64,000 bases of DNA from Chloroflexota bacterium (GTDB lineage: Bacteria > Chloroflexota > Limnocylindria > Limnocylindrales > CSP1-4). Under the pieces are notes generated by a model that searched no databases, was not told the DNA's origin, and saw only the letters and a list, made by a program, of their open reading frames with translations. Positions 12,660 through 64,000 of this stretch are shown piece by piece. The first letter of the stretch is position 1. Every line of letters begins with the position of its first letter. The stretch is from the NCBI GenBank assembly GCA_026004015.1, contig BPIH01000001.1, positions 208,398-272,397 on the forward strand. Direction: 5' to 3'. The position numbers were made by a program, and so were the translations under genes.

Positions 12660-12800
12660 ACGCTCCGCGCGTCATCTCCAAGATCGGGGCCGCTGGGTCG
12701 CGAAGCCGGTGAAAGTCCGGCACAGTCCCGCTACGGTGACCGTCGGCTCGCCGACGGAAGTCCGGTCGCCGACCCCGCGGTCGTTGCTCGAACCTTCGAG
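12660..12800 (+). promoter_or_regulatory. cobalamin (B12) riboswitch
   Basis: Conserved core GGGTCGCGAAGCCGGTGAAAGTCCGGCACAGTCCCGCTACGGTGA (B12 box) with downstream GCCGACGGAAGTCCGGTCGCC. Located in the 5' leader of a BtuF-like gene. Boundaries are approximate. Confidence 0.8.
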
Positions 12801-12957
12801 AGAAAGGGGTAGGCAAACGATGCGACCGACGAACTAGGACCCCTCGACCGTCCAGCGCGAGGGGTCGTTCCATGTCTCGGGTCGGCCCGGGCCGGCGCGC
12901 GGCGCCCTCGGGGCGGCCGTCGGGACCCCTCGCATCGCCGATCAGCAGAGGTTCCCG

Positions 12958-14094
12958 ATGTTCGACCTTCTCCGGCGGAGGCCGCGCCGGGCGAGCGGCC
13001 TTCTCGTCCTTCTCTCCCTCGCCCTCCTCGCTGCCGCCTGCACGGGTGGTGCGGCGACCCCGAACCCCCTCCCCTCGGCGGTGCCGACACCGAGCGCCCC
13101 GGCCTCCAGCACCCCGGCCACGCCCCTCCCGTCGCCGAGCCCGACGTACCCCCTCACCCTGACCGACGACGAAGGGACGAGCGTCGTCATCCCGGCCGAG
13201 CCGGCCCGCATCGTTTCCCTCACCCCGGCCACGACGGAGATCCTCTTCGCCATTGGGGCGGGCCAGCGGGTCGTCGCCACGACCGACTTCGACGACTACC
13301 CGCCCGAGGCGGTCCCCCTCCCGGACGTCGCCTCCTACACGGGCGTCGACGTCGAGAAGATCGTCGGCCTCGAAGCCGACCTCGTGATCGCCGGCGGCAA
13401 CAACTTCAACCCGCCCGAGGCGATCGCCCGGCTCCGCAGCCTCGGCATCCCCGTCCTCGTCGTCTACGCCCCCGACACCGAGACGATCCTCCGCGACATC
13501 GAGCTCGTCGGTCGGGCCGTCGGTCGGTCCGAGGCGGCGACGGCCCTCGCCGAGGCCATCCGACGAGATTTCGAGGCCGTCCGCTCGGCGACCGCCGGCC
13601 TGCCCCGACCTCGGGTCTTCTACGAGCTCGACGCGACGAACGAGATCTATGGTCCGGCCGACGACTCCTTCCTGGCCGAGATGATCGAGCTCGCCGGCGG
13701 CGAGCCGATCACGACCGGCAGCCCGACCGTCTTCTCCATCTCCCTCGAGAAGCTCGTGGCGGCCGACCCCGAGGTCATCGTCCTCGGCGATGCCGCGTAC
13801 GGGGTGACCCCCGAGGTCGTCCGTTCTCGACCGGGCTGGGGGTCGATGACGGCCGTCCGAACGGGAGCGATCCGCCCCGTGAACGACCTCCTCGTCACCC
13901 GACCGGGGCCCCGGATCGCCCTCGGTCTCCGGGAGCTCGCCCTCGCCATCCACCCCGGCCTGGCACTGCCGCCGCCGGTGAGCGCGACCCCCGCCCCGTC
14001 CAACGCCCCGTCGAGCGGTCCGTCGCCTGAGGCGTCGGTCTCCCCCGCGCCCTCCGCCTCCGCCGAGCGGCGGCTCCTCACGGCTGCCCGCTGA
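12958..14094 (+). CDS. ABC transporter substrate-binding lipoprotein, BtuF/FecB (periplasmic binding protein type 8) family
   Basis: Signal plus LLAAAC, then a Pro/Ser linker. Family core RIVSLTPATTEILFAIGAGQRVVATTDF...DLVIA...PEVIVL. Sits downstream of the B12 riboswitch. Confidence 0.85.
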   Translation: MFDLLRRRPRRASGLLVLLSLALLAAACTGGAATPNPLPSAVPTPSAPASSTPATPLPSPSPTYPLTLTDDEGTSVVIPAEPARIVSLTPATTEILFAIGAGQRVVATTDFDDYPPEAVPLPDVASYTGVDVEKIVGLEADLVIAGGNNFNPPEAIARLRSLGIPVLVVYAPDTETILRDIELVGRAVGRSEAATALAEAIRRDFEAVRSATAGLPRPRVFYELDATNEIYGPADDSFLAEMIELAGGEPITTGSPTVFSISLEKLVAADPEVIVLGDAAYGVTPEVVRSRPGWGSMTAVRTGAIRPVNDLLVTRPGPRIALGLRELALAIHPGLALPPPVSATPAPSNAPSSGPSPEASVSPAPSASAERRLLTAAR

Positions 14095-20854: not shown

Positions 20855-22519
20855 GTGCCCAACGGTTACGACGCCGTCGTCGTCGGCGGCGGCCACAACG
20901 GCCTCGTCGCCGCCGCCTACCTCGCCCGCGGCGGCCTGCGGACCCTCGTCCTCGAGCAGCGGCCGTTGGTCGGCGGGGCGGCGGTCACCGAGGAGGTCGT
21001 GCCGGGCTTCCGGTTCAGCGTCTTCAGCTACGTCGTCTCCCTCCTCCGACCCGAGATTATCCGCGACCTCGACCTCCCGAAGCACGGCCTCGCCATCCTG
21101 CCCCTCGATGGGACGTTCACGCCGCTCCGACCGGGCGAGGGGCCGAAGGCCGGGGGCGGGGACTACCTCTGGCGGACGAACGACCACGGCCGAACGATCC
21201 GGGAGCTCCGGCGTTGGAGCCTCACCGACGCCGAGGCCTACGAGGAATACGGGCGCCTCATGGCCGATCTCGCCCGCTTCGTCAAGCCGATCCTCTCGAT
21301 GGTCCCGCCCGACCCGACCGGTCTCGACCTCCGCGAGCTCGCCCCGCTTGCCGGTCTCGCCCGGCGCTTCCTCGAGCTCGACGAGCGCCGTCAGGCCGCC
21401 CTCGTCGGCCTCATGACCATGAGCGCCGCCGACTTCCTCGGCCAGTGGTTCGAGACCGACCCGCTCCTCGCGACGATGTCCGCCTCGGGGATCATCGGCA
21501 CCTTCCTCGGCGTCCGCTCGCCGGGCTCGGCCTACGTCCTCCTCCACCACTACATGGGCGAGATCGACGGCGCCTTCCGGGCCTGGGGGCTGCCCCGCGG
21601 CGGGACCGGCGGGATCAGCGAGGCCATCGCCTCGGCGGCCCGGGCCGCGGGCGCCGAGATCCGGACCGGGGCCCGGGTCGTCCGGATCCTGACTCGGGGC
21701 GGCCGAGCCGCCGGCGTCGTTCTGGAGGACGGGGAGGAGATCGCGGGCCGGGTCGTCCTCTCGGCCGTCGACGTCCGGCGGACGATCCTCGACCTCCTCG
21801 ACCCCGCCGAGGTCGACCCCGACTACGTCGCCGAGGTCCGCCGGTTCCGCTTCCGGGGCAGCTCCGGGAAGGTCAACCTCGCCCTCGACGGGCTCCCCGA
21901 GTTCAGCTGCCTCCCGAACCGCGACGGGGTCGAGCACCTCCGGGGCGCGATCTCGATCAGCCCCTCCCTTGACGAGATGGAGGAGGCCTACGACGACGCG
22001 AAGGCGGGCCGCTGGAGCCGGCGGCCGTACGTCGACATCGTGATCCCGAGCCTCGTCGACCCCTCGATGGCGCCGCCCGGCAAGCACGTCATGAGCTGCT
22101 TCGTCCAGTACGCCCCGTACGAGCTCGATCCCGCCCTCGGGACCTGGGACGCCAACCGCGAGGCCTTCGGCGACACCGTCGTCGAGCGGATCGCCGAGTT
22201 CGCCCCGAACCTGCCCTCGCTCATCGTCGGCCGCCAGGTCCTCACTCCCCTCGACATCGAGCGGACGACCGGCCTGACGGAGGGCAACATCTTCCAGGGC
22301 GAGCTCACCTTGGAGCAGCTCTTCTTCAACCGCCCGGTCCCCGGCTGGGCCCGCTACCGGACCCCGATCCGGGACCTCTGGCTCTGCGGCAGCTCGACGC
22401 ACCCGGGCGGCGGGATCATGGGTGCGAACGGCCGGCTTGCTGCCCTCGAGCTCCTCCGCTCCCTCGGTGGGCGGGGGTTCGGGCGGGATCCCTGGCGCGG
22501 CCGGGGAGGCGCCGCGTGA
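20855..22519 (+). CDS. FAD/NAD(P)-binding oxidoreductase, phytoene-desaturase (CrtI)-related family
   Basis: N-terminal dinucleotide fold YDAVVVGGGHNGLVAAAYLARGGLRTLVLEQR. C-terminal STHPGGGIMG motif typical of the family. Confidence 0.8.
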   Translation: MPNGYDAVVVGGGHNGLVAAAYLARGGLRTLVLEQRPLVGGAAVTEEVVPGFRFSVFSYVVSLLRPEIIRDLDLPKHGLAILPLDGTFTPLRPGEGPKAGGGDYLWRTNDHGRTIRELRRWSLTDAEAYEEYGRLMADLARFVKPILSMVPPDPTGLDLRELAPLAGLARRFLELDERRQAALVGLMTMSAADFLGQWFETDPLLATMSASGIIGTFLGVRSPGSAYVLLHHYMGEIDGAFRAWGLPRGGTGGISEAIASAARAAGAEIRTGARVVRILTRGGRAAGVVLEDGEEIAGRVVLSAVDVRRTILDLLDPAEVDPDYVAEVRRFRFRGSSGKVNLALDGLPEFSCLPNRDGVEHLRGAISISPSLDEMEEAYDDAKAGRWSRRPYVDIVIPSLVDPSMAPPGKHVMSCFVQYAPYELDPALGTWDANREAFGDTVVERIAEFAPNLPSLIVGRQVLTPLDIERTTGLTEGNIFQGELTLEQLFFNRPVPGWARYRTPIRDLWLCGSSTHPGGGIMGANGRLAALELLRSLGGRGFGRDPWRGRGGAA

Positions 22520-24171
22520 GCCGCCCGGATCGCGTCGACGCCGTCGTCGTCGGCGGCGGCCACAACGGCCTCGTCGCCGCGGGGTACCTCGCCCGCGCCG
22601 GGCTCCGGGTCCTCGTCCTCGAGCGCCGGCCGACCGTCGGCGGCACCGTCGAGACCGTCACGGTCCGGCGCGGGGTCCGGGCGCCGGCGGTCTTCCCGAC
22701 GGTCGGTCGCCTCCGCCCGTCGATCGTCCGCGACCTCCGGCTCCGGGACCACGGCCTCCGCCTCGTCGCCCCGGCCGCCTCCCTCGTCGCCCCACAGCCC
22801 GACGGGCCGGCCGTCGTCCTGGAGCGCGACCCCGAGGCGACGGCGGTCCGGCTTGGCGCCTTCTCGGCGGCCGATGCGGCGGGGTTCCTGGCGCTGGATC
22901 GGCGGGTCCGGGCCCTCGAGCGGGTCGTCGCCGCCCTCAACGGGACGATCCCGCCGGACCTGCGCGAGCCCGGCCTCGACGAGGCCCTCGCCGGCCTCCG
23001 GCTCGGGCGCGCCTTCCGGGGCCTCGGGCGGCGCGACGGCCGGGCGCTCCTCCGCTGGCTGCCGATGGCGATCGCCGATGCCCTCGTCGACGACGTCCCC
23101 TCCGAGCCCCTCCGGGCCGCCCTCGCCTGGGGCGGCCTCCGGTACGCGGCCTTCGGCCCGCGCTCGGCCGGCTCGACGGCCTGGCTCCTCACCCAGGTCG
23201 CCGGCACCGGCACCGGGCTCGTCGGCGAGACCGTCTACGCCCGCGGCGGCCCCGGCGCCGTCACCGAGGCCCTCGCCGCCGCCATTCGGGCCTTCGGCGG
23301 CGAGATCCGGACCGAGGCCGAGGTCGTCCGGGTCACCGAGGCCGACGGGCGGGTCGTCGGGGTCGTCCTCGCCTCGGGGGAGGAGATCCGGGCTCCGGTC
23401 GTCGTCTCGGCCCTCGACCCGAAGCGGACCCTCCTCGACCTTCTCGACCCCGTCGTCGTCGGCCCCGAGCTCCGCTGGCGGGCGGGCAACCTCCGGACGG
23501 CCGGCTCGACGGCGATCGTCTGCCTCGTCCTTCGGCGGCTGCCGCGCTTCCCCTCGCTCGAGGCCGCCGGGGACGCCGAACGACTCCTGCGGGGCCGGAT
23601 CCTCGTCGGGGCGCCGAGCCTCGCCGCGTTGGAGACCGCCTTCGACGCCTCGAAGTACGGCCGGGTCTCGGCCTCGCCGGTTCTCGAGGCGACGATCCCG
23701 TCCCTCGTGGATCCCTCCCTCGTCGAGGGCGCCCGGGCGGGAACCCACGTCCTCCACGCCGTCGTCCAGTGGGCGCCGCGAACGCTCCGGGCCGGGGAGT
23801 GGCGGACCGAGCGAGGGACGCTCCTCGAGGCCGTCGTCGCCCGCCTGGAAGCGGTCGCGCCGGGGATCGGCGACCTCGTCGGGGCGACCCGGGTCGTGAC
23901 GCCCGCCGACATTGAAGCGGAGTACGGCCTCACCGGCGGCCACGTCCTCCACGTCGAGCCGGGCCTCGATGCCTTCTTCCTCTGGCGGCCGCTCTTGGGC
24001 TGGGCGCGCTACCGGCTCCCCGTGGCGGGCCTCTACCTAGCCGGTCCGGGCGCCCACCCGGGCGGCGGGGTGACGGGGCTGCCGGGGCGGAACGCGGCCC
24101 GGGCCATCCTCAACGATCTCGGGCGGCGGGTGCGACCACGACTCGGACTCCTCGCCCCCGCCCGGGCCTGA
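22516..24171 (+). CDS. FAD/NAD(P)-binding oxidoreductase, CrtI-related (tandem paralog)
   Basis: VDAVVVGGGHNGLVAAGYLARAGLRVLVLERR ... GAHPGGGVTG. GTGA overlap with the preceding paralog. Confidence 0.8.
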   Translation: MSRPDRVDAVVVGGGHNGLVAAGYLARAGLRVLVLERRPTVGGTVETVTVRRGVRAPAVFPTVGRLRPSIVRDLRLRDHGLRLVAPAASLVAPQPDGPAVVLERDPEATAVRLGAFSAADAAGFLALDRRVRALERVVAALNGTIPPDLREPGLDEALAGLRLGRAFRGLGRRDGRALLRWLPMAIADALVDDVPSEPLRAALAWGGLRYAAFGPRSAGSTAWLLTQVAGTGTGLVGETVYARGGPGAVTEALAAAIRAFGGEIRTEAEVVRVTEADGRVVGVVLASGEEIRAPVVVSALDPKRTLLDLLDPVVVGPELRWRAGNLRTAGSTAIVCLVLRRLPRFPSLEAAGDAERLLRGRILVGAPSLAALETAFDASKYGRVSASPVLEATIPSLVDPSLVEGARAGTHVLHAVVQWAPRTLRAGEWRTERGTLLEAVVARLEAVAPGIGDLVGATRVVTPADIEAEYGLTGGHVLHVEPGLDAFFLWRPLLGWARYRLPVAGLYLAGPGAHPGGGVTGLPGRNAARAILNDLGRRVRPRLGLLAPARA

Positions 24172-58014: not shown

Positions 58015-58350
58015 TCAGTCGGCGATGAGGAACTCGCCCTGCGGGTTGAGCGAGAGCGGATGGTACGACCAGGAGGCCCCGTCGAAGCCGAGGATCATCG
58101 CGCCGAGCGAGGAGGTCGACCGAACCCGCGGTAGCGAGGCCTCGGTCATCGTTGCGAAGATCGGGCCGGAGCCGAAGAAGCGGTAGTCAGTCCGGATCGT
58201 GCCCCCCTCGGTCCCGGTCGTCTCCTCGATGATCCCTGCCGGAACGCCCTCGATGACGGCGTTCCGGAAGCAGCCCAGGACCTCCTTCGGGTTCCCCCAG
58301 ACCGCGCTGCTCCTCGCGCCGGTGCTCCCGGCACCCGCGGCCGGGCCCAT
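58015..58350 (-). CDS. hypothetical protein (111 aa); its ATG lies at the left edge of repeat copy A
   Basis: Protein-like, lower-GC ORF (FRNAVIEGVPAGIIEETTGTEGGTIRTDYRFFGSGPIFATMTEASL...). No family recognised. Confidence 0.4.
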   Translation of the reverse strand: MGPAAGAGSTGARSSAVWGNPKEVLGCFRNAVIEGVPAGIIEETTGTEGGTIRTDYRFFGSGPIFATMTEASLPRVRSTSSLGAMILGFDGASWSYHPLSLNPQGEFLIAD

Positions 58351-58740
58351 CCATTCGCCCGGCGAATGCCACCGAGGGGTGCTTCAACGGCCGGCACCAG
58401 ACATTCGTGCGCTGGATCGTATGCCCGGCCACCCGGCTGCCGCGGCGCCATCCATGCCCCCCACGAATGGTGGACCCGGTCGGTGGCGAGATCGTCGGGC
58501 GACCATTCACCGGGCGCATGACCGACCGCCGCGCGCCCGGGTGACCGCCTCGCTCGGCCTGCTCCCGCCCGCCGAGTCGGCGACCCGAGCCGTTCCCCGC
58601 CGACGGGACCCCGTCGGGCCATTCACCCGGTGCATGGCTGCACGGGCCGACCGGCGGCGCGGGCCGACCGGCGGCACCGGCGGACCTGACCCGGCGGCGC
58701 GGGCCGACCCGACGGGCCGACGGCGACGGCCGCGGTCGCG
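58335..58740. repeat. copy A of an unclassified ~326-nt interspersed repeat plus degenerate tandem-repeat tail
   Basis: Core 58335-58660 aligns by eye base-for-base with 61901-62226. Contains palindromic 17-mers at 58352-58368, 58504-58520 and 58620-58636. The tail 58650-58740 consists of CGGGCCGACC-type units. Confidence 0.85.
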
Positions 58741-58809
58741 CTGGAGCGGCGGGTCCACCAATCGCCGGAGCGGCGTGAAGCACGACAGCTTCCGTATGCG
58801 CCCCGATGA

Positions 58810-59061
58810 CGATGGCCTCCCGGTCGAGCGACGTCGGGTCGCGAGGTCGTCCGCTCCATCGCCGCGCTGGCCGGCGCGCTCGAGCTCGACGTCGTCGCCG
58901 AGGGGGTCGAAACGGGCGAGCAGGTGACGATCCTCCGCGAGCTCGGGGTCGGCCGCGCCCAGGGCTTCCTTTTCGCCCGGCCGATGCCGGCGGCGGCGCT
59001 GGAGGTCTGGGCGGACGCGACCGCCACACCTCGGTCGAGGGTGGCGCCGGCGCGAGCGTAG
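58810..59061 (+). pseudogene. 3'-terminal fragment of an EAL-domain (c-di-GMP phosphodiesterase) gene
   Basis: Frame with no start codon translates to ...[55 protein letters not shown], which is the conserved EAL C-terminal block. An in-frame TGA at 58807 follows right after repeat copy A. Confidence 0.7.
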
Positions 59062-59140
59062 GGGTAGGGGCGCGCCAGGGCCCCCGGGAGCCGCCCACGA
59101 AGGGACCAGCGTCCGTCCCAGAGCGAGGTCGACCCAGGAA

Positions 59141-59176
59141 GTTATAAGTGCGCGAATAGTAGGGCGACTTATAACA
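59141..59176. promoter_or_regulatory. AT-rich inverted repeat GTTATAAGT-N18-ACTTATAAC upstream of the decayed ATPase gene
   Basis: Perfect 9-bp arms at 59141-59149 and 59168-59176, 42 nt upstream of ATG 59218 (RBS GAAGGAGG). A related TTATCATAAGCGCC motif precedes the second ATPase gene. Confidence 0.45.
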
Positions 59177-59217
59177 AGGCGCCGAGGGTTTCGCCACGAA
59201 GACCCGAGAAGGAGGCC

Positions 59218-60353
59218 ATGGACGCCCGCCAGGTACCCGCGCCGCCAGCGCCCACCGACCTCTTCGACCGAGAACAGGAGTGGGCGGACCTCACCAACTT
59301 CGCGCCGCGCCTCTTGATGGACCGCGCCTCGGTCTCGTGTACGGGCGCAGGCGGCACGGCAAGACCTACCTCCTCGAGCACGTCGCCTCGGCGAGCGAGG
59401 GGTTCTACTACCAACCGATCGAAGAAGAGCGCCACCCCACCCTGGAACGGTTCGCCGCCGCGGTGGCCGCCTTCGCCGGAGCGCCCGCCTGGGCCGGCGC
59501 CCGCTTCCCGGACTGGGCGGCCGCCCTCCGGGTCCTCGCCGAGGCGGCGGCCGGTCGGCTCCTCGCATCGACGAGTTCCCGTCCCTCCTCCGCGGCTCGC
59601 CCGAGCTCCCTTCGATCATCCAGGCTGCCTTCGACGCCGCTCGGGCCGGCCGTCACCCCGCCTTCCGGCTCGTCCTCTGCGGATCCGCCCTCTCGGTGAT
59701 GACGGAGCTCCTGACCGGCCAGCGGGCCCTCCGTGGGCGAGCGAGCCTCGACCTCGCCCTCGAGCCGTTCGACTATCGTCAGGCGCGCTCGTACTGGCGC
59801 ATCGGGGACCATCGGACGGCGTTCCTCGTCGATGCCGTCGTCGGCGGCGCCCCGGGCTATCGCGACCTCCTCGATGGCCGGGTTCCGGCCGGGCCGGGCG
59901 AGTTCGCCGACTGGCTCGCGGCCGGCGTTCTGAACCCCTCTCACGCGCTCTTCCGGGAGGCCGACGACCTCCTCGCCGAGGAACCCGGCCTCGTCGACCG
60001 GTCCCTCTATCGCTCGATCGTCGGCGCCGTCGCGGAAGGGAGCCGCACGATCCGTAACGTGGCCCGAGCCGTCGGTCGCCCCGAGACCGCTCTCGGCCAC
60101 CCGCTCGGCCAGCTCATGCGCAGCCGCTTCCTCGTCCGGCACGACGACGTGTTCCGCCCGCGCCGGCCCCTCCTCAGCGTCGCCGACCCGCTCCTCCGGT
60201 TCTTCTTCTCCGTCGTTCGCCCCGACCTGCCCCGTTTTGAGGCGCGACCTCCTCTTCGGGCTCGCTGGCTTCGAGGCGACGCTCCGCCGGGCGGCGCGAG
60301 GCCGCACCGATGTGGAGCTCGTCGACCTGGAGCGATGCTACGAGGGCGAGTGA
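59218..60353 (+). pseudogene. decayed Arch-ATPase/DUF234-family gene (at least 3 frameshifts plus loss of the nuclease core)
   Basis: Segments in three frames: MDARQVPAPPAPTDLFDREQEWADL / LGLVYGRRRHGKTYLL (Walker A) / IDEFPSLL..LVLCGSALSVMTELL...RFFFSVVRPDLPRFEA / RDLLFGLAGFEATLRRAARGRTDVELVDLERCYEGE*. Colinear with the downstream intact paralog except for ~110 aa. Confidence 0.7.
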
Positions 60354-60370
60354 CGGCCGACGTGTCTCTC

Positions 60371-60405
60371 TAGATAAGGGCCGTTATCATAAGCGCCGTT
60401 ATTTA
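60371..60405. promoter_or_regulatory. AT-rich operator/promoter-like element with two ATAA-N6-TTAT inverted repeats
   Basis: TAGATAAGGGCCGTTATCATAAGCGCCGTTATTTA lies ~40 nt upstream of ATG 60444. It is one of the few AT-rich patches in the window. Confidence 0.4.
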
Positions 60406-60443
60406 CCCGAACCGACCGAGAAGGACAGACCGGGAAGGGTAGG

Positions 60444-61883
60444 ATGCCGTTCATCGATCGAGAGCGCGAGCTCGAGGCGCTGGAAGAGCGCTGGGGGTTG
60501 GAGCCCCAGCTCATCCTGCTCTGGGGACGGCGCAGAATCGGCAAGACGACCCTCATCCAGCGGTTCGCCGTTGCCAAGCCGGGCATCGTCTACCAGGCGA
60601 TCCAGGGCACGGCCGCGGAGCAGCTCACCCTCCTCACCGATCGGATCCTCGCCTATCGGCCGGATCCCGCCCTCGCCGCGTCGCCCCTTCAGAACTGGCC
60701 CCAGGCGCTGGCGTACCTGACGAACCTCGCCCGCCTGGCCGCGGCGCGCCGCGAGCCGCTCCTCGTCGTCATCGACGAGTTCCCGTATCTCGTCGCCTCG
60801 ACGCCGGCCCTGCCGTCGATGCTCCAAGCCACGCTTGAGGAGGTGCGTCGGGACGGGCTCCCGCTGTTCCTCGTCATCGCCGGGAGCCAGGTGGCGATGT
60901 TCGAGCGGCACGTCCTCCATGGGCCCCTCTTCGGGCGGCGGACCTGGGGCGAGCAGCTCCCGCCCCTCGACCACCGCCAGGCGCGCGGGTTCTTCCCCGA
61001 CTGGACCGCGGCGGACGCACTGCGGGCCTGGGCGGTCCTCGGTGGCGTCCCGTACTACCTGGAGCAGTTCGACCCGGGACGGTCACTGGCCTGGAACCTT
61101 GAGAACCGGATCCTCCGAAAGGGCGAGGTCCTCTACTCCGAAGCCGAGCTGGTCGTCTCCGAGGAGCTCGGCCCCGACGCCCGGACGTACCTCTCGATCC
61201 TCGCCGCCGTCGCATCGGGTGCGAGCCGCCAGAACGAGATCGCGACCCGCGTCGGCATCCCGGGGCATGCCGTGCCCCCGTACCTGGCGACGCTGCGGCG
61301 GCTCCACCTCCTCGAGCACGATCGGCCGACCGGAGGCGGGAAGGGGGGCCGGGCCGGGGTCTGGCGACTCGGCGACCCCTACCTGCGGTTCTGGTTCCGC
61401 TTCGTCCGACCAAACCTGGCCGACCTCGAGGCGCGGCGGCATCGCGAGGTCTTCCGACAACGGGTTGCCCCCGAGCTCGACCGGTTCGTCTCCAAGCCCG
61501 CCTTCGAGGAGGCGTGCCGCTCGTACGTTCGACTGGCCATGGGCCGGGACGCAGCGCTGCCCGAGCGAGGGGTCGTCGGCGCTTGGTGGGGGCAGGTGCC
61601 GGACGAACGGCGATCGGGGGGTCGACGGACGCGAAAGGGCGAGGTCGATGTCGTCGTCTACGACGGCGAGCGTCTGCTCCTCGCCGGCGAGGCGAAGTGG
61701 TCCGCCGGTGAGGTCGACGTCGATGCCCTCGGTCAGCTCGAAGCCACGGCTCGCCACCTGCCAGGCTTCGGCCCCGAGACGCGGCTTCTGCTCGTGGGCC
61801 GGGAAGGGTTCAGTGCCCGCCTGCGGCAGATCGAAGAGGCCGGGCGGGTCATCCTCCGTACGGTCGACGACCTCTACCGCTGA
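60444..61883 (+). CDS. ATP-binding protein, Arch-ATPase (AAA-like) domain plus DUF234/PD-(D/E)xK nuclease-like C-terminal domain
   Basis: FIDRERELEAL, Walker A GRRRIGKTTL, Walker B LLVVIDEFPY, wHTH-like middle (YLSILAAVASGASRQNEIA), C-terminal EVDVVVYDGERLLLAGEAKWS (D...ExK). Confidence 0.85.
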   Translation: MPFIDRERELEALEERWGLEPQLILLWGRRRIGKTTLIQRFAVAKPGIVYQAIQGTAAEQLTLLTDRILAYRPDPALAASPLQNWPQALAYLTNLARLAAARREPLLVVIDEFPYLVASTPALPSMLQATLEEVRRDGLPLFLVIAGSQVAMFERHVLHGPLFGRRTWGEQLPPLDHRQARGFFPDWTAADALRAWAVLGGVPYYLEQFDPGRSLAWNLENRILRKGEVLYSEAELVVSEELGPDARTYLSILAAVASGASRQNEIATRVGIPGHAVPPYLATLRRLHLLEHDRPTGGGKGGRAGVWRLGDPYLRFWFRFVRPNLADLEARRHREVFRQRVAPELDRFVSKPAFEEACRSYVRLAMGRDAALPERGVVGAWWGQVPDERRSGGRRTRKGEVDVVVYDGERLLLAGEAKWSAGEVDVDALGQLEATARHLPGFGPETRLLLVGREGFSARLRQIEEAGRVILRTVDDLYR

Positions 61884-61900
61884 CCCGGCCCGGGGCGCCG

Positions 61901-62290
61901 CCGCGGCCGGGCCGCATCCATTCGCCCGGCGAATGCTACCGGGGGGTGCTTCACCGGCCCGCACCGGATATTCGTGGGCTGGATCGTACGCCCGGCGAGC
62001 CGGCAGCCGCGGCGCCATCCATGCCCCCCACGAATGGTGGACTCGGCCCGTGCCGAGATCGCCGGGCGAGCATTCAGCGTGTGCATGACCGACCGTCCCG
62101 CGCCCTCGTGACCGCCTCGCGCGGCCCGCTCCCGCCCGCGGACCCGGTAACCCGAGCCCCGCCCCGCTGGCAGGACCCGGTCGGGCCATTCGCCCGGTGC
62201 ATGGCTGCACGGGCCGACCCGGCGGCTCGGGTCGACCGCCGCGGCACGGGCCGATCGCCGCGGCACGGGCCGATCGCCGCGGCACGACGG
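61901..62290. repeat. copy B of the ~326-nt interspersed repeat plus 19-nt tandem-repeat tail
   Basis: Core 61901-62226 has the same orientation as copy A. Palindromic 17-mers at 61919-61935, 62071-62087 and 62187-62203. Tail GCCGCGGCACGGGCCGATC x2.6 at 62238-62287. Confidence 0.85.
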
Positions 62291-62651
62291 CGAGGACCTT
62301 GGGCGGGGAACAGCGAGCGGGCGCCCACGAAAGCGTTCTCCGCCACCCCAGGAGCGTCTTCGCAGCTCAACCCGGGACGAAGCCCTGCGGCGAGGGACAT
62401 CTGCCTTGACCGACGTGTCGATGACGATCACGACTCGCCGAAACCGGTCTCGCGGAGGTGGCGATCGACGTCGTCGGCGACGTCTCCAGACTTCCCGGCA
62501 CAACGAGGCCCCGCTTCCCCCCGGCGAGGCCTCGCTCCTTCAGCTTGTCGGCTCCGGGAGCAGTTGGGTCAGGGAGCGCAGCCGCAGCAGCGGGCGGGAC
62601 TCGAACTTGTCGAGTGCCGTGTCCGTTGGGGCGGGAGCACCATCGCATCAC

Positions 62652-62659
62652 GATAATAT
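62652..62659 (+). promoter_or_regulatory. -10-like GATAATAT 9-11 nt upstream of ATG 62669 (candidate leaderless promoter of the RHH/PIN pair)
   Basis: cacGATAATATgatgtagttATG. AT-rich patch with no SD sequence. Confidence 0.4.
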
Positions 62660-62668
62660 GATGTAGTT

Positions 62669-62914
62669 ATGAAGACGCGGACGACGGTGACCCTCGACGA
62701 GGAGGTCCTGCGGGCTGTGAAGGTGCGAGCGGCGCGGACCGGGAAGCGCGAGAGTCAGGTCATCGAGGAGGCACTCCGGCGCGATCTGGGCCTGGACCTC
62801 CTGGCGGGGCTCTGGGAACGGAACCGGATGTCGGAGGACGAGGCGATGGCCCTCGCCCTCGAGGCCCAGCGGGAGGCGCGCCGCGCGACCGAGCGGCGTT
62901 CGGATCTGGGTTAG
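62669..62914 (+). CDS. ribbon-helix-helix (CopG-like) antitoxin
   Basis: MKTRTTVTLDEEVLRAVKVRAARTGKRESQVIEEALRR. Lies 3 nt upstream of the PIN gene. Confidence 0.75.
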   Translation: MKTRTTVTLDEEVLRAVKVRAARTGKRESQVIEEALRRDLGLDLLAGLWERNRMSEDEAMALALEAQREARRATERRSDLG

Positions 62915-62917
62915 GCC

Positions 62918-63346
62918 GTGCGGGCGGTCCTGGACGTGAACGTCTTGGTTGCCGCCCTCCTCTCGGCCGGATGCGCTCCCGCTCGATTGCTCACCAACTG
63001 GCTCGACGGGGGCTTCGAGCTGGTCGTTTCAGCGGAGCTCCTGACCGAGCTCGAGCGCGCGCTCTCGTACCCGAAGGTTTGCGCCTGCGTCTCCGCCGAC
63101 GAGGCCAGGCGCCTGGTCGTCCTCCTGGAGACCGGGGCGCTGCTGCTTCGGGATCCGCCCGACGAACCGCCCGTAGAGCCGGCAGATCCGGACGACCGTT
63201 ACCTCGTCGCCCTGGCTGCAGCCGCCGAGGCCGTCCTCGTGACCGGCGACGCAGGGCTGCTCGCCCTCCGCGACCGTGGCCTTCCCGTGCTGCGTCCGGC
63301 CGAGTTCCTCCTCGAGGTGGAGCGTCGGCCGCCGCCTGCCGGGTAG
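62918..63346 (+). CDS. PIN-domain toxin (PIN_3/TIGR00305-like)
   Basis: VLDVNVLVAALLS...ELLTELERAL...PDDRYLVALAAAAEAVLVTGD. Confidence 0.75.
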   Translation: MRAVLDVNVLVAALLSAGCAPARLLTNWLDGGFELVVSAELLTELERALSYPKVCACVSADEARRLVVLLETGALLLRDPPDEPPVEPADPDDRYLVALAAAAEAVLVTGDAGLLALRDRGLPVLRPAEFLLEVERRPPPAG

Positions 63347-63609: not shown

Positions 63610-64000
63610 CTATGACCCGGCCGCCAGGGCCGCCTGCCGCTCGATCGTCTCGACCCGCTCGAGGGTCATCGATCGGAGGCGCGCCGACCGGATCCGAGCG
63701 ACCCAGGCCCGTGCCTCGGCGCCACGGTACCCGTCGTCGAGGCGGAGTTCCGGCAGGTGACGGAACCGCCGCCCATGGGTCGCCCCGAGGTAGGCGAGGT
63801 CGAAGACGGCCTTCGCCGGCCTCGCGAGCGCGATCCCCGAGGGCAAGACCTCGAACCCTCCGAAGACTTCTGGGGCGAGCTGATGGACAACGACGACGCC
63901 GAGCGGCGTCGAGATCCGCCGCGAGCGCCCGAGTGAGACGGCGTGGGTCTCCCGCGGGATCTGCGACAGCATCCCGTGGGCGTGGAGCGCCGACCAGAGC
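63610..64000 (-). CDS. AbiEi-like antitoxin/transcriptional-regulator domain protein; 5' end beyond window
   Basis: Frame is open to the window edge: ..LWSALHAHGMLSQIPRETHAVSLGRSRRISTPLGVVVVHQLAPEVFGGFEVLPSGIALARPAKAVFDLAYL fits the AbiEi C-terminal domain pattern. Confidence 0.5.
   Translation of the reverse strand, partial: LWSALHAHGMLSQIPRETHAVSLGRSRRISTPLGVVVVHQLAPEVFGGFEVLPSGIALARPAKAVFDLAYLGATHGRRFRHLPELRLDDGYRGAEARAWVARIRSARLRSMTLERVETIERQAALAAGS

Follow-up and report, generated by a model that had tools for sequence, protein, structure and literature searches.

A palindrome-rich non-coding repeat beside broken genes in a Limnocylindrales defence island: a possible decaying insertion element

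Background

The 64,000-nucleotide stretch of DNA analysed here (the window) covers positions 208,398 to 272,397 of contig BPIH01000001.1 and comes from a hot-spring Chloroflexota bacterium whose ATPase homologues carry the name Candidatus Limnocylindrales. Its first 54 kb or so carry housekeeping genes, for example for acetyl-CoA carboxylase and fatty-acid synthesis. From 54 kb on, accessory and broken genes make up an island of the toxin-antitoxin (TA) and defence type. In order, the island comprises a DUF6941 gene, a Wzy_C/TPR gene, an open reading frame (ORF) of 111 aa, copy A of a repeat that we call R, the stump of an EAL-domain gene, a frameshifted ATPase_2 paralogue, an intact ATPase_2+DUF234 gene, copy B of R, about 350 nt of further sequence, an RHH-PIN gene pair and a C-terminal fragment of AbiEi. 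The window ends 1.7 kb past copy B.

Here we describe R, a non-coding repeat built around short dyads and one long imperfect palindrome. We tentatively read it as a lineage-specific non-autonomous insertion element that would be recognised in trans via its dyads or hairpins and is now decaying. A preliminary description, made from the letters of this DNA, had already noticed the repeat, and its claims are taken up below where our results bear on them.

Results

Two direct copies share a sharp left edge

Copy A (58335 to about 58735) and copy B (61901 to about 62300) are direct repeats in the same orientation, 3.5 kb apart, and the 64-kb window contains no third copy. A repeat search aligned 300 nt of the two without a gap at 86 % identity (58343-58642 with 61910-62209), and blastn carried the match to 365 nt at 86.0 % identity (E 8e-104). 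Over the core, 40 of 317 alignment columns differ between the copies, close to the approximately 45 differences and 85 % identity that the preliminary description had counted by hand for two colinear direct copies. Within copy A, 58348-58475 is 91 % identical to its counterpart in copy B, and 58476-58640 is 83 % identical.

In the MAFFT alignment, which contains one 1-nt indel, the left edge of both copies is sharp at CCGCGGCCGGGCC (58335 and 61901). The bases directly to the left of it differ, reading …GGCAC/CCGCGG in copy A and …GCCG/CCGCGG in copy B (the slash marks the edge), and the true end possibly lies within the shared sequence. Beyond the core each copy runs into a tail of variable short tandem repeats, as had been described, which Tandem Repeats Finder (TRF) resolves into a 17-nt array in copy A and a 19-nt array in copy B (Table 1).

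A partial or inverted third copy was sought in the flanks, where nothing rose above shuffled controls. Genome, metagenome and viral collections were scanned with exact seeds, which copies about 15 % diverged could escape. In the genome collection a 19-mer core seed gave 8 chance matches of 19-28 nt each, in unrelated low-GC taxa. The seed of palindrome 1 plus ATTCGTG gave one chance match, of 43 % GC, in the metagenome collection, and four exact-seed patterns gave chance matches or nothing in the viral collection. A blastn search of plasmids and phages with the 366-nt copy A returned only GC-rich noise of 40-90 nt.

Four dyads per copy and a 169-bp imperfect palindrome

Each copy of R carries four 17-bp dyads of the form CATKC-N7-GMATG, spaced identically in both copies at 101, 51 and 116 nt (positions in Table 1). 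The window holds 8 exact dyads, every one within the R copies, and 59.6 kb of related loci lack exact dyads altogether. When one mismatch is allowed on both strands, 17 matches are found versus 1.6 expected; the strict 17-mer consensus of the preliminary description gives five sites where none is expected. That description had counted three strict palindromes per copy. The count stands for copy A, whereas copy B has only two, the middle one (62071, CATTCAGCGTGTGCATG) being degenerate, and the looser consensus adds a fourth site per copy (58453 and 62020). The perfect 17-mer CATTCGCCCGGCGAATG is indeed present at 58352 and 61919. Likewise present is the inverted pair CATTCGTG (58402) and CACGAATG (58462), 52 nt apart, whose first arm in copy B reads TATTCGTG.

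Dyads 1-3 and the CATTCGTG/CACGAATG pair together make up a single imperfect palindrome of 169 bp, which stands out from shuffled sequences with a z-score of about 5-6. It contains 58 Watson-Crick pairs in copy A and 51 in copy B, and 18 pairs differ between the copies. Only one of these changes is compensated (A-T to G-C). Five exchange a Watson-Crick pair for G-T or the reverse and one does so with A-C; six pairs are Watson-Crick in copy A and mismatched in copy B, three show the opposite, and in two the bases of copy B do not pair where copy A has G-T or likewise no pair. This pattern looks like decay rather than maintenance.

R is non-coding and gives no RNA-structure signal

R is non-coding DNA, as had been suspected. 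The GC content by codon phase is flat in copy A (0.72/0.73/0.81) and copy B (0.71/0.77/0.81), compared with 0.77/0.49/0.88 in the ATPase gene. Substitutions between the copies fall 20/12/7 on the three phases, a mild bias but not toward the GC-richest phase, and divide into 19 transitions and 20 transversions. A concatenated six-frame translation of R found no relative among 5.8 billion protein clusters. Exhaustive HMMER comparison of the open plus-strand frame with 1.84 billion representatives gave one weak low-complexity match (E 3e-4, 32 % identity over 47 aa) and none that is credible.

The earlier view that R is not a tightly structured RNA also holds. Rfam returned nothing at the gathering score; when matches were allowed up to E 10, the sole one was an irrelevant lncRNA model outside R. 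Folding covered both strands and both copies. Single-sequence fold z-scores are -1.6, +0.3 and -1.0, and the RNAalifold consensus energy compared with column-shuffled alignments gives z-scores of +0.02 (plus strand) and -0.56 (minus strand). A scan for promoter-like and terminator-like sites within or beside the copies found none.

R is absent from the orthologous sites of relatives

Related loci (L009-L014, L018 and L019; about 59.6 kb) were fetched via homologues of the ATPase and of the 111-aa ORF, and nhmmer and blastn searches of R against them gave nothing. The closest relatives by ATPase are L009, L019 and L010, with orthologues at 90, 88 and 84 % amino-acid identity respectively, and in all three R is absent after the ATPase stop codon. 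More distant ATPase homologues lie in unrelated neighbourhoods, again with no R. The sequence directly past the ATPase stop codon differs among the window, L009, L010 and L019, and variation seems to be concentrated in the 3′ flank of this gene.

L010 retains the orthologous RHH-PIN pair 129 nt past its ATPase, while the same spacer measures 785 nt in the window. The ATPase and RHH-PIN genes are therefore old neighbours, with copy B and about 350 nt between them in the window. The copies had been proposed to mark the boundaries of a cassette. They do stand at rearrangement junctions with broken genes; however, the adjacency in L010 does not support the copies as the two ends of one ATPase cassette, and judged from this gene order each copy marks a junction of its own.

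The ATPase gene differs from that of L009 at 35 % and from that of L010 at 46 % of four-fold-degenerate sites, and the R copies differ from each other by 14 % (9 % and 17 % by half). The divergence between copies is well below this neutral range, and the copies are therefore lineage-specific and fairly recent. If R drifts neutrally, they would have split well after the divergence from the nearest sampled relatives, in line with the lack of R in those relatives.

Truncated and degraded genes surround the copies

The 111-aa ORF to the left of copy A has a single homologue, of 155 aa, in L018. DNA homology between the two breaks at 58310, within coding sequence, and the ORF lacks the first 58 N-terminal residues of its homologue and has 14 unrelated codons instead. 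Its ATG (58350) falls inside copy A, in keeping with the earlier remark that the left edge of this copy coincides with the start of a minus-strand ORF, and its first 14 codons come from the junction and copy A. A search of the window found the missing N-terminus nowhere else. The 111-aa ORF is probably a pseudogene or a fusion. Annotated as KatS3mg065_0251, it is a truncated gene with a start codon borrowed from R, which calls for caution with its annotation.

On the other side of copy A, about 100 nt past the tail, starts the EAL-domain fragment lacking its 5′ part that had been recognised previously; only the last positions of the profile are covered (Table 1). The first of the two tandem ATPase_2 genes further downstream is a pseudogene split over two frames. 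AT-rich repeats lie just upstream of each ATPase gene (59141-59175 and 60374-60402) against a background of 72 % GC. One of them is the inverted repeat GTTATAAGT...ACTTATAAC, and the other consists of 1.9 copies of ATAAGCGCCGTTATC. The ATAAGCGCCGTTATC motif is kept upstream of the L019 orthologue (at about 150-185) as GTTATGATAAGCGCCGTTATC, which makes it a probable promoter or operator for this family of ATPases.

A truncated start of a PIN gene after copy B, as previously suggested, was not confirmed: all that is visible is a minus-strand VIVIDTSV peptide (62431-62408), for which there is no HMM support. The RHH-PIN pair itself is preceded by a palindrome, CATCACGATAATATGATG (62646-62663), 5 nt upstream of the RHH start codon, which L010 keeps as CATCACGATGCTATGATG (about 1636-1653). 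This palindrome is probably the autoregulatory operator of the pair. Further downstream, the match of a 120-aa minus-strand ORF (63610-63972) to the AbiEi antitoxin is confined to the C-terminal half, from position 84 to 188 in a profile of 199. An AbiEii partner is not seen ahead of the PIN gene, and the AbiEi fragment is another broken TA component of the island.

Table 1. Features of the island around the two copies of R (positions in the window)
Feature	Position	Strand	Remarks
111-aa ORF (annotated KatS3mg065_0251), 5′-truncated gene	58015-58350	-	89 % nt identity to L018 over 58015-58310
Orphan filler, 24 nt	58311-58334		Separates the truncated gene from copy A; no homology to L018 or copy B
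R copy A, core	58335-58642	+	86 % identical to 61901-62206; codon-phase GC flat
Copy A, 169-bp imperfect palindrome	58352-58520		Dyads 1-3 at 58352-58368, 58453-58469, 58504-58520; self-reverse-complement score 44 vs null -5.3 +/- 8.5
Copy A, dyad 4	58620-58636		Outside the 169-bp palindrome
Copy A, tail of short tandem repeats	58643-58735	+	17-nt unit CGGGCCGACCGGCGGCG x3.6 at 58643-58709, overlapping 9-, 13- and 23-nt periods (TRF)
EAL-domain C-terminal remnant	58837-59061	+	Pfam EAL positions 187-236/236, E 1.4e-12; NCBIfam c-di-GMP phosphodiesterase C-termini
Degraded ATPase_2 paralogue, DUF234 part missing	59218-60353	+	tblastn with the intact ATPase: residues 21-54 in frame 1, 110-331 in frame 3, 36 % identity
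Intact AAA+ ATPase (ATPase_2 + DUF234)	60444-61883	+	Matches PADLOC candidate defence family PDC-S27
R copy B, core	61901-62206	+	Begins 18 nt past the ATPase stop codon
Copy B, 169-bp imperfect palindrome	61919-62087		Dyads 1-3 at 61919-61935, 62020-62036, 62071-62087 (degenerate); self-reverse-complement score 34 vs null -4.7 +/- 7.8
Copy B, dyad 4	62187-62203		Outside the 169-bp palindrome
Copy B, tail	62207-62300	+	19-nt unit GCACGGGCCGACCGCCGCG x4.3 at 62207-62286, 88 % matches (TRF)
DNA absent from L010	62301-62645	-	Possibly decayed antitoxin and PIN start (VIVIDTSV, 62431-62408); no HMM support
RHH-PIN toxin-antitoxin pair	62646-63346	+	RHH 62669-62914, PIN 62918-63346; 79 % nt identity to L010

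Other features of the window

Far from the island, an AdoCbl (cobalamin) riboswitch lies at 12675-12818 on the plus strand (67 bits versus a gathering score of 50), upstream of plus-strand genes starting near 12958. Two adjacent plus-strand paralogues of about 550 aa (20855-22519 and 22516-24171) share patches of 75-91 % nucleotide identity at an offset of 1646-1667 nt and look like a tandem gene duplication.

Discussion

A decaying insertion element or a local duplication

With only two copies and no relatives found in the searches, R is most likely decaying DNA of a selfish or duplicated kind. Between these, we lean tentatively toward a non-autonomous insertion element. R would work, or would once have worked, at the DNA level; it consists of four 17-bp dyad sites, three of them nested in the palindrome, with a slippage-prone tandem-repeat tail behind them. 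A transposase or recombinase encoded elsewhere may have recognised the dyads or hairpins and placed R at two nearby sites in the TA/defence island. These insertions may have been coupled to adjacent deletions that truncated the neighbouring genes, and both copies would then have decayed neutrally. The mobility of R, its trans-acting enzyme and the coupling of insertion to deletion are inferred, and several observations favour them. The sharp left edge common to both copies marks a discrete unit. The anatomy is built rather than random, given that all 8 exact dyads lie in R and that the palindrome far exceeds its shuffles. R is non-coding, is absent past the orthologous ATPase of L009, L010 and L019, and is recent by the divergence of its copies. 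Copy A takes the place of the 5′ end of a gene whose product has 155 aa in a relative, and adjoins the EAL stump. Finally, copy B has lost palindrome pairs, with six broken against three gained and one compensated.

Several findings weigh against this interpretation. An inverted-repeat scan and end-to-end local alignments yielded no terminal inverted repeats above shuffles, only the self-palindromic CCGCGG recurring, and no short direct repeat that could be a target-site duplication is common to the flanks of either copy. The ORFs screened in 54-64 kb included no recognisable transposase or recombinase gene. The right end of R is unsharp, the homology between the copies fading past about 58735 and 62300 in the MAFFT alignment. 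There are two copies only, close together and in the same orientation, which local duplication explains equally well, and the exact-seed scans found no further copy in any collection. In addition, at 35-46 % neutral divergence the intergenic DNA of the relatives would be unalignable anyway, so that the absence of R from them rests mainly on spacer length and on the coding breakpoint at 58310. A mobile element that is without the hallmarks of its kind is nevertheless plausible.

Local duplication of one original copy, B, without transposition is possible and nearly as likely as insertion. A break, or a fork that stalled, in the DNA separating the small gene from the EAL gene would have been repaired by template switching, with about 400 nt copied from 3.5 kb downstream and the intervening DNA deleted; a tandem duplication of about 3.5 kb followed by deletion would give the same picture. 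Palindrome-rich sequence would favour such stalling and switching. Copy A has a truncated gene on either side and the 24-nt filler at its left junction, a pattern typical of repair junctions, and the copies are few, close, directly oriented and younger than the split from the relatives. The lack of terminal inverted repeats, target-site duplications and other copies is also what duplication predicts. What duplication leaves unexplained is the origin of R and of four copies of one dyad within it; moreover, R at site B is itself missing from the relatives, and at least one insertion is still needed. The preliminary description had named a simple local duplication including flanking genes, with these two copies the only ones in the pan-genome, or a match to a known element, as the outcome that would tell against its own reading. 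No other copy was found in the collections, as such a duplication would have it, but the duplicated stretch excludes the flanking genes and Rfam gave no match. If R is the product of local duplication only, it is an ordinary scar, yet a clean and datable example of a palindrome-associated rearrangement.

Functional alternatives

An unlikely alternative is that R is a functional protein-binding array that an integrated plasmid-like element left behind or that the island uses, whether a res or multimer-resolution site, a partition site or an iteron-type array, in which case the two direct copies would permit excision of the ATPase segment. The fixed spacing of the four dyads in both copies and their direct orientation suit such an array, the 17-19-nt tandem units resemble iterons, and TA genes and candidate defence genes abound nearby, among them those for an RHH protein and for an ATPase of AAA+/winged-helix-turn-helix type. 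However, the ORFs screened in 54-64 kb included no recognisable recombinase, Rep or Par gene; R has no AT-rich stretch, with GC at 0.58 or more in every 40 nt, and lacks DnaA boxes; and the 17-19-nt period of the tail is not helically phased. Copy B shows decay of dyad 3 and of the palindrome, and the relatives keep the ATPase without R.

It is improbable, though conceivable, that R is an undescribed protein-bound recombination or replication module, made of the four dyads and an iteron-like tail, through which an unlinked recombinase or the neighbouring AAA+/winged-helix ATPase (PDC-S27) excises or shuffles the ATPase segment lying between the direct copies. If this were true, it would represent a novel mode of cassette movement in the defence islands of Chloroflexota.

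A structured non-coding RNA transcribed from the plus strand is very improbable. In its favour, one-sided changes in the hairpin tend to keep G-U on the plus strand (five Watson-Crick to G-T exchanges against one with A-C), and one A-T to G-C change is compensatory. This 5:1 asymmetry is not significant (binomial estimate p ~0.1), and between the copies six pairs are broken and three gained. The single-sequence and consensus fold z-scores are near zero or weak, Rfam is empty for R even at E up to 10, and no promoter-like or terminator-like site was found within or beside the copies.

Least credible of all is a protein-coding fragment, or an artefact of metagenome assembly fusing two strain variants: long open frames do run across both copies, one codon phase holds 20 of 39 substitutions and the source is a metagenome-assembled genome, but GC by phase is flat, the phase that collects substitutions is not the GC-richest, the Arg/Pro/Ala-rich translations have no credible homologue, and a chimeric join would be expected to switch inside one copy and not to produce two copies 14 % diverged with different flanks.

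Comparison with known systems

Several described classes were considered and set aside. R exceeds 300 nt while integron attC sites measure 57-141 nt, and the attC cores RYYYAAC and GTTRRRY are absent in and around both copies; nor is there an integrase among the ORFs screened in 54-64 kb (DUF6941, Wzy_C/TPR, ATPase_2, RHH, PIN and the AbiEi fragment) to suggest an integron cassette. Together with the empty Rfam search, this agrees with the preliminary description, which had not recognised R as an integron attC site or a CRISPR leader; nor is R a CRISPR array. An iteron-type origin was rejected on the GC minimum, the lack of a DnaA box and the lack of a rep gene. No covariance model of Rfam, including those of omega-RNA/HEARO, group II introns and retron RNA, matches R. 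The template and variable repeats of a diversity-generating retroelement are excluded by substitutions spread over all base pairs, with A>N accounting for only 5 of 39, and by the lack of a reverse transcriptase gene.

Among the systems that do resemble R, res and multimer-resolution sites of serine or Xer recombinases have several dyad subsites, are non-coding and, as two direct copies, flank a segment. The four dyads per copy at identical spacing in direct repeat match this arrangement. Unlike these sites, R is about three times longer, its subsites are decaying in copy B and the screened ORFs include no cognate recombinase gene nearby.

The palindrome-associated transposable elements (PATEs) derived from IS200/IS605 share with R the lack of terminal inverted repeats and target-site duplications and the presence of similar hairpins close to each end: 17 nt separate the left edge of R from the start of dyad 1, and dyad 4 ends 6 nt (copy A) or 3 nt (copy B) before the tail. 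PATEs have a conserved target of 4-5 nt directly 5′ of the left end; in R the four left-flanking bases of the two copies differ (GCAC and GCCG), though its true end may lie within the shared sequence. No tnpA or tnpB is visible and omega-RNA/HEARO gave no match. The likeness to PATEs is a presumed one.

Miniature inverted-repeat transposable elements (MITEs) and the pneumococcal BOX elements (boxA-boxB(n)-boxC) are, like R, small, non-autonomous, non-coding and absent from orthologous sites. BOX elements also have a variable number of tandem subunits, internal in BOX and at one end in R. Unlike MITEs, R has no terminal inverted repeats or target-site duplications. MITEs occur in multiple dispersed copies per genome; of R, two copies lie in the 64 kb of the window, and the exact-seed scans and BLAST searches of the collections gave no real match.

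ERIC/IRU and REPIN elements are non-coding and intergenic, consist of an imperfect palindrome of about 130-170 bp made of inverted sub-repeats and need no signature of terminal inverted repeats or target-site duplications. The 169-bp segment of R is just such a long-hairpin imperfect palindrome. ERIC/IRU and REPIN elements, however, number tens to hundreds of copies per genome, whereas R has two, with no dyad elsewhere in the window; the high intergenic copy number of REP, REPIN and ERIC families was found neither in the window nor in the 59.6 kb of related loci. R is moreover longer by some 200 nt and carries the tandem-repeat tail.

R thus matches no known family and is unclassified within the broad kind of small non-coding palindromic repeats. 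By analogy, it would work most like the imperfect palindromes of ERIC/REPIN type, MITEs or modular BOX-like repeats. If R is multi-copy in its lineage, it would be the first small palindromic or MITE-like family described for the little-studied Limnocylindria-like Chloroflexota, and a useful marker of genome plasticity and of the scrambling of defence and TA islands.

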